Shown here: in pieces, positions 3,704 through 10,332 of the stretch | Position numbering within the stretch: position 1 is the stretch's first letter | Layout of the letters: the number at the start of each line of letters is the position of its first letter | Virus record (IMG/VR): IMGVR_UViG_2690316233_000003 | Length of the DNA: 10,933 bases | Source: a virus | Lineage: Duplodnaviria; Heunggongvirae; Uroviricota; Caudoviricetes | Direction: 5' to 3' (one strand) | Program-made: the position numbers and the translations under genes | Notes under the pieces: model-generated | What the model saw: the letters and a program-made list of their open reading frames with translations, nothing else | Databases searched by the model: none | Told to the model about the DNA's origin: nothing

Positions 3704-4647
3704 GCAATCCCCCTGTCTGCAAACTTCCCTTCCCGAACTCCCGTTAACGAATCTTCTCTCAGCAAGTAATCAAAATCAGCCGTCCAGCCAGTGTCGTTGT
3801 CTCCGAAGTAAAACGGCTTGGCCTGATGCACAAACGCCCTGACATACGCTCTGAAACCGTCCACGTTTGGCGTTTTCAGTTGCGGGATGATTTTCTTCAG
3901 GCGGCGTTTGCGTTTCTCGTTGACCGCAACAGCGTGTGGCAGTCTGTCACCGACTTCGGTGTTGTAGGCGTTCAGGAAGGATTCGTAGTCGATTCGTTCT
4001 GCCTTGCGACGTTCAGGTTTAACCTGCTCATCGCCTCCCCCATTGGGGGGTAGGGGGGTATTATTTATATTCTTGTTAATACCTTCTTGTTCATGATGTG
4101 CGGTTGTTTGTGCGGCTTCATGTGCGCTTTCATGTGCGGCATGTACGCTGAAAGCCGCGCCATTACTGGCTTCATCATGTGCGGCATCATGTGCGGTTGT
4201 TTGTGCGGCTTCATGTGCGGGTGAATTGTCCATTTTTTGAGCATATTCATGGTAATTTGTGATGGTGATCACACGACCTTTTTGCTTCTCTCCATCAATG
4301 GTGATCATCCCCTCTTTCACAAAAACCTGAAGCATCCGCTCAACCTGATCACGGCTTGCTGGCTTGCCATGTCTGTCGCATAACTGAAGACCTAAATCAG
4401 CTGCTGTCACAACCAGTTGACCGGGTTGCAGATGCCATTCATGACCTTTGAAGTTCGCTTTGTATGGCTTTCTGGCGGCATTCAGGAGAAGGTTTTCCCA
4501 CAGGGTGCGAAGATAAACATCTTTCGCCCATGACTGTTTCAGAATGCTCCGGTACAACGGAATGTAACCAGTTTTCTGGTTCTCCATCCTGTTGCTCCTG
4601 CGCTCGTGTGCGGCGCTGAAATCGTAGATTTTTGCTGTATTGCTCAT
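3700..4647 (-). CDS. replication initiator, lambda O-like N-terminus; origin iterons lie inside the gene
   Basis: 315-aa ORF. N-terminus [10 protein letters not shown] resembles lambda O (MTNTAKILNF). A central low-complexity repeat (HEAAQTTAH / HDAAHDEA) is encoded by the DNA iterons. Directly followed by the helicase gene. An alternative internal start at Met21 (4587) has a better SD (AGGAG). Confidence 0.85.
4036..4225. repeat. ori-like iteron array: two clusters of four 12-bp-spaced TGTGCGG cores, an AT-rich tract and a G/C near-palindrome
   Basis: TGTGCGG (or a one-base variant) starts at 4097, 4109, 4121, 4133 and at 4178, 4190, 4202, 4214. A block of about 31 bp is duplicated (about 4096-4127 and 4188-4219). 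AT-rich segment about 4058-4090; CCCCCATTGGGGGGTAGGGGGG at about 4036-4060. This architecture parallels the lambda origin inside O. Confidence 0.7.
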
Positions 4648-5596: not shown

Positions 5597-5687
5597 GAGA
5601 CAATAATACGATATGTACTTTTGGAATGCAAACAAAAAATACATCTTGTGCATGGATGGTTTTAGTACAGAGCGTAATAATAAGGAT
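5597..5687. promoter_or_regulatory. OR region: divergent pR (toward cro) and pRM (toward cI) with operator half-sites AGTAC...GTA(C/A)T
   Basis: Minus-strand pR: -35 TTGCAT (plus 5626-5631), 17-bp spacer, -10 TATTAT (plus 5603-5608). Operator-like 15-mers at 5605-5619 (revcomp AGTACATATCGTATT) and 5664-5678 (AGTACAGAGCGTAAT), related to the OL site AGTACAAATCGTACT. A possible weaker third site lies near 5636-5650. The pRM position was not resolved. Confidence 0.55.
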
Positions 5688-6347
5688 ATGAAAATGAAAT
5701 GGTATGAACTGGCTAGATCCAGAATGAAAGATCTCGGCATAACTCAAGAGAAGTTGGCTGAAGAGCTTGGTATGACGCAGGGTGGAATTGGTCACTGGTT
5801 GCGCGGATCTCGTCATCCATCTCTTGACGAGATTGGTGTGGTGTTTAAATACCTTGGTATTGATAGCGTCTCATTCAACCACGACGGTACATTTTCACCT
5901 GTTGGCGAATACTCATCTATCCCCGTTAAAAAACAATATGAGTACCCTGTTTTTTCTCATGTTCAGGCCGGGATGTTCTCGCCTGAGCTTAGAACCTTTA
6001 CCAAAGGTGATGCGGAGAGATGGGTCAGTACAACCAAAAAAGCCAGTGATTGTGCGTTCTGGCTTGAAGTTGAAGGTAATTCCATGACCGCACCAACAGG
6101 ATCCAAGCCAAGCTTTCCTGACGGGATGTTAATTCTCGTTGACCCTGATCAGGCTGTTGAGCCAGGTGATTTCTGCATAGCCAGACTTGGTGGTGACGAG
6201 TTTACCTTCAAGAAACTGATCAGGGATAGCGGTCAGGTGTTCCTACAACCACTAAACCCGCAATATCCAATGATCCCATGCAATGATAGCTGTTCCGTTG
6301 TAGGGAAAGTTATCGCCAGCCAGTGGCCTGAAGAGACATTTAGTTAA
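5688..6347 (+). CDS. cI: CI-type prophage repressor (HTH N-terminal domain + LexA/S24 self-cleaving C-terminal domain)
   Basis: The C-terminal two-thirds ([38 protein letters not shown]...GNSMTAP...[26 protein letters not shown]...) is near-identical to lambda CI, including the Ala-Gly cleavage site and the Ser/Lys dyad. The N-terminal HTH domain differs from lambda ([23 protein letters not shown]). The start could be 5688 or 5694 (leaderless or weak SD); the track start 5613 is rejected. Confidence 0.9.
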
Positions 6348-6377
6348 CAGCCTCACCACTCTAAAGCACACAACAAT

Positions 6378-6407
6378 AACCCGACCTTAGTGTCGGGTTT
6401 TCTTTTT
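6378..6407 (+). terminator. intrinsic terminator downstream of cI
   Basis: AACCCGAC-cttagt-GTCGGGTT stem-loop followed by TTTTCTTTTT. Confidence 0.6.
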
Positions 6408-6459
6408 CCAAAATATAAACCCATTAAATACAAAGCGTTATAAAAAACCAATTATATTT

Positions 6460-6501
6460 AGAACATTTTGTATTGACTCAATAAAGTACAAATCGTACTA
6501 T
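6460..6501 (+). promoter_or_regulatory. pL-like promoter with OL operators
   Basis: -35 TTGACT (6473-6478), 17-bp spacer, -10 TACTAT (6496-6501). Palindromic operator AGTACAAATCGTACT (6485-6499) lies in the spacer and -10; a second related site at 6460-6474 overlaps the -35. Located upstream of nutL and N. Confidence 0.55.
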
Positions 6502-6541
6502 TTAGCCATCAGCAGGACGCACTAACCACCATGAAGGTGAT

Positions 6542-6571
6542 GCTCTTAAAAATTAAGCCCTGAAGAAGGGC
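6542..6571 (+). promoter_or_regulatory. nutL (boxA + boxB)
   Basis: boxA-like GCTCTTAAA at 6542-6550 and boxB hairpin GCCCTGAAGAAGGGC at 6557-6571, matching lambda nutL as I recall it. Confidence 0.85.
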
Positions 6572-6681
6572 AGCATTCAAAGCAGAAGGCTTTGAGTAGC
6601 GCGAAATGCAGCTGCAAGACAGCAACCGTGGAGATAAGCATCACGGCGCGTTACTCAAAGCTAACTGACAGGAGAATGACC

Positions 6682-6813
6682 ATGAATAACGAAGCGCTTA
6701 AAGAAATGATTGCGAAACTCCTTGAGGACGCACGCCGAATTCAAGAAGTGGAGCCAAACGCAGGGACACAATCACGTATTGATGAAGCGATGAAGTTGCT
6801 CAAAGGAGAATAA
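6682..6813 (+). CDS. small ORF (43 aa; 45 aa if started at 6676) in the N leader, abutting the N start
   Basis: ACAGGAGAAT SD at about 6669-6675 followed by in-frame ATGs at 6676 and 6682. Translation MNNEALKEMIAKLLEDARRIQEVEPNAGTQSRIDEAMKLLKGE. Stop TAA 6811-6813 is 1 nt before the N ATG. The longer track ORF 6592-6813 has no SD at its start. Confidence 0.45.
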   Translation: MNNEALKEMIAKLLEDARRIQEVEPNAGTQSRIDEAMKLLKGE

Positions 6814-6814
6814 A

Positions 6815-7141
6815 ATGGATGCACAAACACGCCGCCGCGAACGTCGCGCAGAGAAGCAGACTCAATGGAAAGCAGCAAATCCCCTGTTGGTTGGGGTAAG
6901 CGCAAAACCAGTTAACCGCCCAATTCTCTCGCTGAATCGCAAACCGAAATCACGAGTAGAAAGCGCACTGAATCCGATAGACCTTACGGTGCTGGCTGAA
7001 TACCAAGAACAGATTGAAAGCAACCTGCATCGTATTGAGCGCAAGAATCAGCGCACATGGTACAGCAAGCCACGCAGTGAAATGGGTGTGACTTGTGTTG
7101 GTCGCCAGAAAATTAAATTAGGCAGCAAACCACTTATTTGA
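6815..7141 (+). CDS. N: antitermination protein N (lambda-type)
   Basis: Translation MDAQTRRRERRAEKQTQWKAANPLLVGVSAKPVNRPILSLNRKPKSRVESALNPIDLTVLAEYQEQIESNLHRIERKNQRTWYSKP... carries the arginine-rich boxB-binding motif and is near-identical to lambda N from memory. SD AAGGAG at 6803-6808. Confidence 0.95.
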   Translation: MDAQTRRRERRAEKQTQWKAANPLLVGVSAKPVNRPILSLNRKPKSRVESALNPIDLTVLAEYQEQIESNLHRIERKNQRTWYSKPRSEMGVTCVGRQKIKLGSKPLI

Positions 7142-7151
7142 GGACTGATAC

Positions 7152-7394
7152 ATGAGAGTAAAAACTATGGGCGCAAGCCCATTAAGCGGTCGTATTTTTC
7201 AAGGAACATTAAACACTGAAAAAGGAATGTGGGTAGGAAAGAAAGAAGATGTCACCGAACAGGCAGTTAAGGCAGTAGCTGAACACATGATGATAAAAGA
7301 CCAGAAATATGCATACGAAACGAAGGATGGCAAATGGCTGATAATAAGTCATCAAATAGTTGATAAATTACCAGAAGAGTTTATTGCTGATTAA
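7152..7394 (+). CDS. hypothetical protein (80 aa), first gene of the AT-rich accessory block after N
   Basis: ATG 7152 with GAGGA 8 nt upstream. Visibly AT-richer than the flanking conserved genes. No recognisable motif. Confidence 0.55.
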   Translation: MRVKTMGASPLSGRIFQGTLNTEKGMWVGKKEDVTEQAVKAVAEHMMIKDQKYAYETKDGKWLIISHQIVDKLPEEFIAD

Positions 7395-7425
7395 AATTAT
7401 TTTGGCATAAACAACAGAGGCTAAC

Positions 7426-7722
7426 ATGGAATTTAAAGGTACTGAAGGTAAGTGGGAAATAATGATGGATGGCGATGAGATTAAAATCATCCAGGCAGAC
7501 TCTCTTGAAAATGGCACAGGCTGTCGTTCGTATATTGCAATCTGTGAGGAAGTTCAATGCATTGAAGATGCTAATCTAATAGCGGCAGCACCTGACCTTC
7601 TCGAAGCACTTCAGTTATTACTTAAGCAATCCCAAAATAGAACAACGACAACATATCCAGAATGGTATGGAGCTGTTAATAAAGGTCTCGCAGCAATCAG
7701 AAAAGCTCTTGGGGATAAGTAA
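7426..7722 (+). CDS. hypothetical acidic protein (98 aa) with C-terminal NLIAAAPDLLEAL motif
   Basis: ATG 7426 with AGAGG 5 nt upstream. Stop overlaps the next start (TAATG). I recall the AAAP(D/E)LLEAL motif from Ead/Ea22-like phage proteins; this is unverified. Confidence 0.6.
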   Translation: MEFKGTEGKWEIMMDGDEIKIIQADSLENGTGCRSYIAICEEVQCIEDANLIAAAPDLLEALQLLLKQSQNRTTTTYPEWYGAVNKGLAAIRKALGDK

Positions 7723-7910
7723 TGAAAGTAAAAATAACTGCTTCTAATACCAGTTTTGTTAGTGTTGGTGATATTACAGAAGTAATAACAAACCATGATG
7801 GAACACAAGTTATGTGGTCTGATTTTTGTAAAAGATATGAGCGAGTTAGTTGGTGTAAAAACGTATGGGGAGTCGAATACGAAGAATTACCTGAAATGCA
7901 TGACGAATAA
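7722..7910 (+). CDS. hypothetical small protein (62 aa)
   Basis: Translationally coupled to the upstream ORF (TAATG overlap); followed by a hairpin and an intrinsic terminator. Confidence 0.55.
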   Translation: MKVKITASNTSFVSVGDITEVITNHDGTQVMWSDFCKRYERVSWCKNVWGVEYEELPEMHDE

Positions 7911-8005
7911 GCACTGTGTATTCATTCCAACGAGTGAATACACGGAGCAATGTCGCTCGTAACTAAACAGGAGCCGACTTGTTCTGATTATTGGAAATCT
8001 TCTTT

Positions 8006-8033
8006 GCCCTCCAGTGTGAGGGCGATTTTTTAT
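8006..8033 (+). terminator. intrinsic terminator inside the pL operon (between the 62-aa and 122-aa genes)
   Basis: GCCCTC-cagtgt-GAGGGC stem-loop (8006-8023) followed by GATTTTTTAT. Confidence 0.6.
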
Positions 8034-8051
8034 CTGTGAGGATATGAACAG

Positions 8052-8420
8052 ATGTCAAACATCAAAAAATACATCATTGATTACGACTGGAAAGCATCAA
8101 TAGAAATTGAAATCGACCATGACGTAATGACAGAGGAAAAACTTCACCAGATTAATAATTTCTGGTCAGACTCTGAATACCGACTCAATAAACACGGTGC
8201 TGTATTAAATGCTGTATTAATCATGCTGGCGCAACATGCTCTGCTTATAGCAATTTCGCAAGACTTAAATGCATATGGTGTTGTTTGTGAGTTCGACTGG
8301 GATGATGGAAATGGTCAGGAAGGATGGCCTCCAATGGATGGTAGTGAAGGAATAAGAATTACCGATATCGATACATCAGGAATATTTGATTCAGATGATA
8401 TGACTATCAAAGCCGCCTGA
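8052..8420 (+). CDS. hypothetical strongly acidic protein (122 aa) in the slot preceding cIII
   Basis: ATG 8052 with GAGGA about 9 nt upstream. By my hand count about 23 Asp/Glu against 8 Lys/Arg, with a D-rich C-terminus (TDIDTSGIFDSDDMT). A GC hairpin (8409-8430) overlaps its stop. Confidence 0.65.
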   Translation: MSNIKKYIIDYDWKASIEIEIDHDVMTEEKLHQINNFWSDSEYRLNKHGAVLNAVLIMLAQHALLIAISQDLNAYGVVCEFDWDDGNGQEGWPPMDGSEGIRITDIDTSGIFDSDDMTIKAA

Positions 8421-8495
8421 GCGCGGCTTTACCGCATACCAATAATGCTTCACGAGAGGCATTTTCGTTATGCAATCAAATATAAGGAGTTACCC

Positions 8496-8630
8496 ATGAT
8501 GCACTTTCAGCTCGCGGGTAGCGGCGTCATGTCCGCTTTCTACCCGCACGAATCTGAATTATCACGCCGAGTTAAACAATTAATCAGAGCAGCAAAGAAA
8601 CAACTGGAGGCGTTATGCGCAATGAAATAG
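8496..8630 (+). CDS. cIII: CIII-like protein (FtsH inhibitor family; P22 C3 position)
   Basis: AAGGAG at 8484-8489, ATG at 8496. Translation MMHFQLAGSGVMSAFYPHESELSRRVKQLIRAAKKQLEALCAMK; the central amphipathic helix resembles lambda CIII (PSESLLERITRKLRDGWKRLIDIL). The track start 8445 lacks an SD. Confidence 0.7.
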   Translation: MMHFQLAGSGVMSAFYPHESELSRRVKQLIRAAKKQLEALCAMK

Positions 8631-8767
8631 CCATCAATCACCAGATGCTTCGTGCTGCACAGAACAAAGCAGTAATAGCCAGATTTATTGGTGATTCCAA
8701 AATGTGGCTTGAAGCAAATAAAGCGATGAAATCAGCTATCAACCTTCCGTGGTATCGCAGGAAATGA
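8615..8767 (+). CDS. kil: Kil-like small protein (50 aa; host cell-division inhibitor family)
   Basis: Not in the track. GGAGG at 8606-8610, ATG at 8615. Translation MRNEIAINHQMLRAAQNKAVIARFIGDSKMWLEANKAMKSAINLPWYRRK shares the I-A-x-F-I-G-D-x-K-M...EA motif I recall from lambda Kil. Position between cIII and arf/erf matches P22. Confidence 0.6.
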   Translation: MRNEIAINHQMLRAAQNKAVIARFIGDSKMWLEANKAMKSAINLPWYRRK

Positions 8768-8922
8768 GTTTTACAGATAACTGGTCAGACGAAGAATTCA
8801 TTCGTCAGATGAAAGAATTAATCGGTAACGAAGGAGATATTCATGTCACTTGCAACCACAGTGAAGGAGAGCAAGTTACAGAGACGCATGTACACGCAGA
8901 AGGCTCTCTGGTATCGCCATAA
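8764..8922 (+). CDS. small protein (52 aa) at the Arf position upstream of erf
   Basis: Not in the track. ATGA overlap with the kil stop. Translation MSFTDNWSDEEFIRQMKELIGNEGDIHVTCNHSEGEQVTETHVHAEGSLVSP. Assignment is by synteny with P22 (kil-arf-erf) only. Confidence 0.45.
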   Translation: MSFTDNWSDEEFIRQMKELIGNEGDIHVTCNHSEGEQVTETHVHAEGSLVSP

Positions 8923-9023
8923 TGGTGACCGCGAAGGAATGCGGGTATGCCTTAACTTGTCCCGAGTCGAAGTATTAAATCAGCGTTATTTCCTTGGGCC
9001 GTGTCCATTCTGAGAACAATCAT

Positions 9024-10035: not shown

Positions 10036-10332
10036 ATGCCAGCGCCTCTGTATGGTGCGGATGACCCGCGCCGCTGTTCCGGCAATTCCGTATCGGAGGT
10101 GCTGGATAAATTCAGAAAAAACTACGACCTGATAATGTCGCTACCGCAGGAAACGAAAGAGGAAAAGGAATTTCGCCATTGTATATGGCTTGCAGAGAAA
10201 GAAGAACGCGAGCGAATTTACCAGACATCAATCCGACCATTCCGCAAAGCCACATATACCCACTTCCCTGAATATATCGATCCGCGCCTGCGTAATTACC
10301 GCTCACGCTATGGCGCTATCAGTAATGACTGA
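10036..10332 (+). CDS. hypothetical 98-aa protein, possibly Abc2-like (anti-RecBCD)
   Basis: AAGGA SD upstream of the ATG at 10036. Size (98 aa) and position next to the erf module match P22 Abc2; sequence identity is not verified from memory. Confidence 0.45.

Follow-up and report, generated by a model that had tools for sequence, protein, structure and literature searches.

A probable three-module accessory region between N and cIII of a lambda-type prophage

The neighbourhood of ral has been treated as a phage 'accessory region' by Silas et al. (bioRxiv 10.1101/2023.04.06.535777), where orf184 triggers the gop-beta-cII abortive-infection system. Ral is non-essential on a strain without type I restriction and conditionally essential on restricting hosts, and ea10 has been scored as non-essential in lambda by CRISPR interference (CRISPRi; PMC10695390). 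Between lambda ral and ea10 lies LPR1, renamed PreS, an Hfq-bound small RNA (sRNA) of about 88 nucleotides (nt) that is processed to about 68 nt and has its 3′ end at the terminator named tL2a; it is produced during the lytic cycle, increases dnaN translation by pairing with the mRNA and supports phage DNA replication, and deletion of its seed or of the whole sRNA lowers spontaneous phage release two- to four-fold (bioRxiv 10.1101/2024.10.31.621285). Here we compare with these systems the stretch 7152–8420 of a 10,933-nt window of viral DNA (IMG/VR record IMGVR_UViG_2690316233_000003), to which all coordinates refer. The layouts of lambda and of P22-like phages agree that this is the ral/sieB/gene-17 slot, as the initial annotation of the window had proposed. 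Our analysis points to the N-to-cIII accessory region of a lambda-type prophage, composed of three independently moving modules, a reading that we hold at a probability of about 80%. The stretch contains the following features, with the open reading frames (ORFs) lettered A, B, C and D (D being ea10).

7152–7394, + strand: gene A, 80 amino acids (aa), DUF7446 (PF24233; phrog_1578), a one-gene cassette occupying the first slot downstream of N.
7426–7722, + strand: gene B, 98 aa, Phage_P22_Y8K6/XkdD family (PF27050, precomputed annotation; phrog_1273).
7722–7910, + strand: gene C, 62 aa, acidic, phrog_10407 (E 3e-46).
7916–7943, + strand: perfect 12-bp hairpin (GTGTATTCATTC…GAATGAATACAC) found by folding, just 5′ of the predicted PreS start.
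7944–8033, + strand: putative Hfq-dependent sRNA PreS (LPR1), by identity to lambda, with predicted ends.
8004–8033, + strand: intrinsic terminator tL2a, forming the PreS 3′ end; an 8-bp stem with 5 GC pairs at 8004–8025, then TTTTTT.
8052–8420, + strand: ea10, 122 aa, DUF2528 (PF10800, 156.4 bits).

A Shine-Dalgarno-like sequence precedes every one of the four ORFs, and the stop of B overlaps the start of C as TAATG. While the ORFs, the hairpin and the terminator lie where the initial annotation had put them, its view of the whole as one four-gene block does not survive comparison with related prophages. Sharp breakpoints in blastn alignments of 6591–8700 against 13 related loci divide the region into modules that meet at short shared linkers.

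To about 7110: N module.
7118–7154: linker J1, comprising the N end, the Shine-Dalgarno sequence (AAACCACTTATTTGAGG) and the start codon (breakpoints 7118/7122–7154).
To 7418: A module.
7400–7418 (19 nt): linker J2, TTTGGCATAAACAACAGA, which closes the A module on its 3′ side and opens the B-C module on its 5′ side.
7400–7910: B-C module.
7911–8472: PreS-ea10 module.

J1 is a short conserved joint 5′ of whichever gene occupies the first slot; its AAACCACTTATTTGAGG reappears immediately 5′ of the leading cassette gene in two other loci (L002 and L003) and at the N end in phage 21. The J2 motif TTTGGCATAAACAACAGA is found in four loci (L001, L002, L004 and L005); in lambda and phage 21 it lies downstream of ral. 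Homology-driven exchange, the source of mosaicism in lambdoid genomes, is likely to take place at these linkers.

The modules occur in different company from one prophage to the next. The exact A protein lies directly after the antiterminator gene in six of six distinct contexts, never with B-C or Ea10, and in three loci (L003, L012 and L014) the A module is joined directly to the PreS spacer. Upstream of the exact B protein lies Ral in three contexts, which read Ral-B-C-Ea10 (L024, L026 and L030), and the order A-B-C is seen only in the contig of the window itself and in L029, a short contig that ends after C. C adjoins B or a truncated B in seven of eight contexts, and alleles of B in Salmonella and other Escherichia coli have unrelated small overlapping ORFs in the C position. 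Prevalence differs as well: across 5426 complete E. coli genomes, A occurs in 45, B-C (at least 80% covered) in 60 and the PreS spacer in 2237. Coverage of 6800–8650 reaches at least 80% in a single one of these 5426 genomes, whose first gene is orf184, not A; the first-slot gene of OZ040950.1 (L002, 2176–2499), upstream of B-C-PreS-ea10, is 96% identical to the orf184 of Silas et al. Judged by these contexts, A, B-C and PreS-ea10 assort independently, which makes the four-gene block a chance juxtaposition of modules rather than a unit. The combination A-B-C-PreS-ea10 is new within a known kind of region whose parts are already catalogued, and it illustrates neatly how cassettes are shuffled within an accessory region of lambdoid phages.

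In the architecture that we propose, slot 1 after N is held by gene A here, whereas sibling prophages have Ral in that place, immediately 5′ of an identical B-C-ea10 array. The second module is B-C, a Y8K6/XkdD-family protein with a translationally coupled 62-aa protein, inserted between J2 and the PreS hairpin relative to prophages in which A abuts PreS. The third is an invariant lambda backbone of hairpin, PreS, tL2a and ea10.

The right-hand 40% of the block (7911–8420) is plain lambda backbone. Positions 7912–8051 are identical in 140/140 nt (100%) to the lambda ral-ea10 spacer and nearly so to that of phage 21 and further prophages, while the 122-aa ORF shares 119/122 residues (98%) with lambda Ea10 and matches PF10800 over profile positions 1–104 of 104 at 156.4 bits (cut-off 22). 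What had been taken for a hairpin and terminator of the block's own is thus the lambda PreS/tL2a element, and the ORF listed as an unassignable accessory gene is lambda ea10. Membership of LPR1 has been defined by at least 92% identity to lambda LPR1 with few gaps (bioRxiv 10.1101/2024.10.31.621285). Over 7912–8051 identity is complete, and the second distinguishing feature of PreS, a GC-rich terminator hairpin with T6 just upstream of ea10 (start 8052), is also present. Since the reported length is about 88 nt with an end at tL2a, PreS is placed at about 7944–8033. A terminator is annotated at the equivalent of tL2a in the phage 21 record, and the fold of 7912–8034 (123 nt) has z = −5.96 against shuffles; a scan of 6300–9000 with Rfam 15 returned only a chance match to mir-15, a microRNA (miRNA). 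Because the sequence is 100% identical to that of lambda, expression, Hfq binding and dnaN pairing would be expected of this allele too. Transcripts ending at tL2a would then yield PreS and, with Hfq, more DnaN synthesis and phage replication. In lambda, polymerase modified by N at nutL passes tL2a into ea10, cIII and kil.

The hairpin at 7916–7943 is identical in lambda and near-identical in phage 21, OZ040950 and CP103589, and may contribute to PreS processing or stability. Ea10 is highly acidic, with a net charge of about −15 and an isoelectric point (pI) of 4.2, and has one strongly hydrophobic 19-residue stretch around AVLNAVLIMLAQHALLIAI. The label single-strand-binding protein given to it in older records does not fit because the protein is so acidic.

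Relative to lambda and phage 21, the early-left region has the same type of N, the PreS/tL2a spacer (100%), ea10 (98%), cIII and kil in the same gene order, on the same strand and with similarly low GC content, whereas sieB, orf28 and ral of those phages give way to DUF7446 and a Y8K6-family gene with its 62-aa partner. In the P22-like ST104 (24 - sieB - ral - orf19 - orf18 (P22 orf78-like) - 17 - c3) a Y8K6-family gene stands between ral on one side and the last accessory gene with c3 on the other, a placement matching that in the window; this homologue, between ral/orf19 and gene 17, is 44% identical to B. However, sieB, ral and gene 17 are all absent from the window, and its Ea10 and PreS are features of lambda rather than P22. 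The ral accessory region of Silas et al. is the same neighbourhood: orf184 lies directly upstream of B-C-ea10 in OZ040950, and the set of 200 accessory genes that those authors synthesised and screened includes orf110, a member of the B family with 34% identity to B. The motifs of A, C and Ea10 were not found in the list of those 200 genes, and the B family is given no function there. Ral (PF11058) resembles A in being a small early protein directly upstream of B-C-ea10 in sibling prophages, but the predicted folds and sequence motifs of the two are unrelated. The idea that A is a distant Ral was rejected on the lack of homology between the A profile and lambda Ral (hhalign probability 2.6%) and of any match to Pfam Ral.

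The initial annotation had described the block as AT-richer than its surroundings, and the compositional comparison that it proposed bears this out. GC content is 38.4% over 7152–8420 against 47.1% in the rest of the window, the minimum among 1269-nt windows of the whole 10.9 kb starts at 7132, and GC at third codon positions (GC3) is 0.21–0.33 in the four ORFs against 0.40–0.55 in flanking genes. The lambda sieB-ral-ea10 stretch has 39.8% and phage 21 ral-ea10 39.2%, against 47–50% for N, while the equivalent region of ST104, at 45.8%, lacks the AT-richness. As the slot is equally AT-rich in lambda and phage 21, composition marks neither a special acquisition nor this window in particular; AT-richness is a property of the slot. 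Recent import from AT-rich virulent phages was rejected as its source, given that the loci holding A, B and C homologues in the virulent phages Det7, RB49 and KB57 have 41–46% GC and that lambda and phage 21 are equally AT-rich here. A search for hidden genes gave only − strand ORFs and an alternative + frame ORF at 7795–7962, all without family support, and these were set aside.

None of the four ORFs had been assignable to a family at the outset. DUF7446 (100 bits) and DUF2528 (156 bits) now pass Pfam thresholds, B is PF27050 in precomputed annotation, and all four proteins match PHROG families at E 3e-30 or better. The profile searches suggested at that stage therefore supply a family for each protein, but these families are of unknown function. 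Judged by protein conservation reaching to Ackermannviridae for A, to Krischvirus for C and across 6604 clusters for B, together with the Shine-Dalgarno sequences and the TAATG overlap, A, B and C appear to be real genes.

A matches PF24233 with 100.2 bits (cut-off 24.1) over profile positions 2–70 of 70 and phrog_1578 at E 1e-40. The protein is neutral (pI 6.7), and its AlphaFold2 (AF2) model, with a predicted local distance difference test (pLDDT) score of 91, consists of three strands, a helix and a hairpin (beta3-alpha-beta2). Its significant structural neighbours among viral models belong only to its own uncharacterised family. Homologues of A were found by tblastn in 282 phage records, nine near-identical and the remainder below 60% identity, the latter mostly in large virulent phages such as Ackermannviridae (about 55% identity). 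The homologue in Det7 lies within a string of small hypothetical genes. A second DUF7446 gene of 84 aa occurs between the DUF2737 and Ead/Ea22 genes in many prophages (L015, L017 at 7282–7536, L018, L019 and L021), further down the early-left operon, so the family occupies two different accessory positions.

B carries PF27050 in the precomputed Pfam annotation of the identical protein and all close homologues, matches phrog_1273 at E 3e-30, has a pI of 4.5 and is labelled 'XkdD/Y8K6 family phage-associated protein' in RefSeq. The profile of its family gathers 6604 representative clusters at 50% identity, nearly all of about 100 aa, with the conserved motifs MKEFKGTxGxW, (D/N)AxLIAAAPDLLEAL and AIxKALGE; the first and last of these, and LIAAAPDLLEAL, are all present in B and in 29 diverse relatives. 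The fraction held by the commonest residue is 0.68–0.83 in these frame segments and 0.21–0.22 in residues 11–46 and 64–88, and close relatives of B show clean whole-segment swaps of either variable segment around the invariant LIAAAPDLLEAL. The N-terminal decapeptide MKEFKGTPGPW and the C-terminal AIxKALGE are kept across thousands of otherwise divergent clusters of the family.

C, with a pI of 4.8, has only 21 clusters among 5.8 billion proteins and shares 57% identity with the C-terminal half of RB49p076, a Krischvirus protein. That fusion was considered as evidence of cooperation between B and C and rejected, the N-terminal half of RB49p076 being unrelated to B (hhalign probability 0.07%).

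The accessory region of relatives is occupied by Ral, Gad1 (PF25705), GP17, Nmad5, HNH_3 and orf184, with GP17 found in the ea10 slot of L015. Proteins with the nucleotide-modification-associated domain Nmad5 (PF18757) fill the slot next to N, 5′ of B-C, in L017 (4044–4553) and as 207-aa genes in L018, L021 and L022. A 324-aa protein with a precomputed match to PF25705 lies between a B-family gene pair and cIII in E. coli CP146665.1 (L037, 3633–4607); Gad1 is the anti-Gabija family. At the same spot L012, L016, L026 and APC_JM3.2 encode a 322-aa 'TolA-like' protein.

The presence of Ral, Gad1, gp17 and orf184 in the same region of relatives makes a host-interaction role for A, B and C plausible. 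Transcription from pL would pass nutL and N and then carry A, B and C, giving very early expression; no + strand intrinsic terminator was found between pL and 8004, so the three genes would share the immediate-early transcript of N. We envisage A, B and C as small soluble, neutral-to-acidic proteins that would bind or modulate proteins of the host or of rival phages. From their position and the behaviour of their families, the odds that they act as small binding proteins of this kind come close to even without quite reaching it. In the Ral slot, A may serve as a substitute early factor for counter-defence or host takeover, and B may be a conserved scaffold with two hypervariable surfaces. The more specific proposal is tentative, with the balance of probability against it: that A is an undescribed early counter-defence protein with a fold lacking any solved relative, and that Y8K6/XkdD is a widespread diversifying binder scaffold directed at variable host or rival-phage targets. 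Behind the counter-defence reading of A stand Ral's place upstream of B-C-ea10 and the homologues in virulent Ackermannviridae.

Several observations weigh against this account. The host-interaction reading is guilt by location, and since Rho-dependent terminators are not predictable, immediate-early expression of A–C is itself uncertain. The AF2 model of B is mediocre (pLDDT 74; three strands and a helical hairpin), and its matches in fold searches are generic helical hairpins and uninformative. B is not always accompanied by C, so the two may form no functional pair, and no phenotype of orf110 is reported in the main text of Silas et al. (bioRxiv 10.1101/2023.04.06.535777). PDB sequence searches with the four proteins gave nothing below E 0.1, NCBIfam no match for A, B or C, and PADLOC-DB 2.0 nothing for B, C or Ea10; for A it gave DndE only, a marginal match (E 0.0078, 14.9 bits). 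No catalytic family was matched by A, B or C in the profile libraries, and none of the three has a known fold. Among the known occupants of the slot, Pfam Ral (PF11058) has no match among the four ORFs and P22 gp17 (PF17420) none among the ORFs of the window, and the longest − strand ORF in 7152–7910 has 65 aa, against 184 aa for lambda SieB on the strand opposite N, with no PHROG matches to − strand ORFs. Literature searches with DUF7446, the accessions, the PHROG ids and the LIAAAPDLLEAL motif returned no papers, and those on XkdD/Y8K6 nothing on function. The anti-defence or exclusion activity, for which the initial annotation saw the block as the likeliest place in the window, finds no evidence for A, B or C in fold, profile or literature searches.

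A may instead be a nucleic-acid binder like PC4, Sub1 or YdbC that acts early in infection, either on single-stranded DNA or as part of replication, recombination or transcription, and not in counter-defence. We regard this as unlikely. The structural matches behind it are sub-threshold, the layout of A (three strands, a helix and a hairpin) departs from the four strands and a helix of that type, the neutral pI of 6.7 is not that of a basic protein, and A has no sequence similarity to PC4 families.

That A, B and C are selfish or neutral passengers, kept only by linker-driven shuffling and of no benefit to phage or host, is quite unlikely. Their rarity (A in 45 and B-C in 60 of 5426 genomes), the many prophages that do without them, the lack of a reported phenotype for orf110 and the non-essentiality of ea10, ral and sieB in lambda (PMC10695390) would suit such a view. 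Ral, however, is likewise dispensable where type I restriction is absent and yet conditionally essential on restricting hosts. Moreover, the reading frames are intact, residues are conserved down to 40–55% identity in unrelated virulent phages and the motifs of the B family are invariant across 6604 clusters; conservation across unrelated phage families is hard to square with neutrality.

Very unlikely is a lysogenic-conversion 'moron' expressed from its own promoter in the repressed prophage, as sieB and rex are, and excluding superinfecting phages. AT-rich composition, a promoter-like site at 7368–7397 upstream of B and the occurrence of sieB in the lambda slot all favour it, but promoter-like sites are at chance level (seven found against 6.0 expected in shuffled sequence). 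No strongly hydrophobic, transmembrane-like stretch of 19 residues is present in A, B or C, as would be expected from SieB or Imm, and there is no sieB-like − strand ORF, those on that strand lacking PHROG matches. The genes all point the same way as pL and are tightly spaced and coupled, and the only strong terminator is lambda tL2a, part of the conserved backbone.

One coherent, recently acquired island with its own hairpin and terminator, forming a new anti-defence or exclusion system, is the least probable of all and largely refuted by the assortment data, for although the four genes are contiguous, AT-rich and on one strand in a slot that has anti-defence or exclusion genes in lambda, P22 and relatives, its components assort independently, its fourth gene and terminator are lambda backbone, lambda and phage 21 are just as AT-rich, and PADLOC yields only the marginal DndE match (E 0.008).

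In practical terms, DUF7446 and the very large Y8K6/XkdD family make a short list of small early phage proteins found among proven counter-defence genes (Ral, Gad1 and Abc2) and the abortive-infection trigger orf184. The exchange of Ral for A upstream of the same B-C-ea10 array is a clean natural experiment on a counter-defence role of A.

As a whole, the window represents the immunity and early region of a lambda-type prophage. Its + strand gene order runs from a cI-like repressor through a pL-like site, the nutL boxB, a 43-aa ORF and N into the block, which is followed by cIII, kil, an ERF-type recombinase, an SSB-like gene and Abc2. The flanks named in the initial annotation, N (PF11438) upstream and cIII, Kil and the ERF-type recombinase downstream, are as it described them.

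5613–6347, in the + strand gene order: cI-like repressor gene.
6473–6501: pL-like promoter site, the best promoter-like match in its stretch.
6557–6571, + strand: nutL boxB GCCCTGAAGAAGGGC, read from the sequence and an inverted repeat in the hairpin scan.
6815–7141, + strand: antiterminator N, 108 aa, the upstream flank (PF11438 N36, E 6e-26).
8496–8630, + strand: cIII, the downstream flank (PF08134, E 5e-30), also called as a gene in L027.

N is 91–96% identical at the DNA level to N of lambda and other prophages. The motif GCCCTGAAGAAGGGC is lambda's boxB sequence, and the records of lambda and phage 21 annotate a nutL in the corresponding position. The N-antiterminated pL transcript, in which the block is included, begins at this site. 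Compared with lambda and several prophages with the same N, the window has 126 extra nt between nutL and N (6678–6803). The 43-aa ORF at 6682–6813 in this addition matches phrog_32391 (E 1.5e-33), and a duplicated AGGAGAAT (6670–6677 and 6805–6812), which is the Shine-Dalgarno region of N, flanks the addition. On these features it looks like another linker-mediated cassette insertion, here within the N transcript leader.

The SSB-like gene is followed by a 98-aa ORF at 10036–10332 that carries PF11043 (Anti-RecBCD_p2, Abc2) in the precomputed annotation of the identical contig; Abc2 is a known counter-defence gene in the same operon. Within the O-like replication gene, His/Ala-rich repeated peptides in several frames at 4065–4250 suggest tandem DNA repeats, probably origin iterons.

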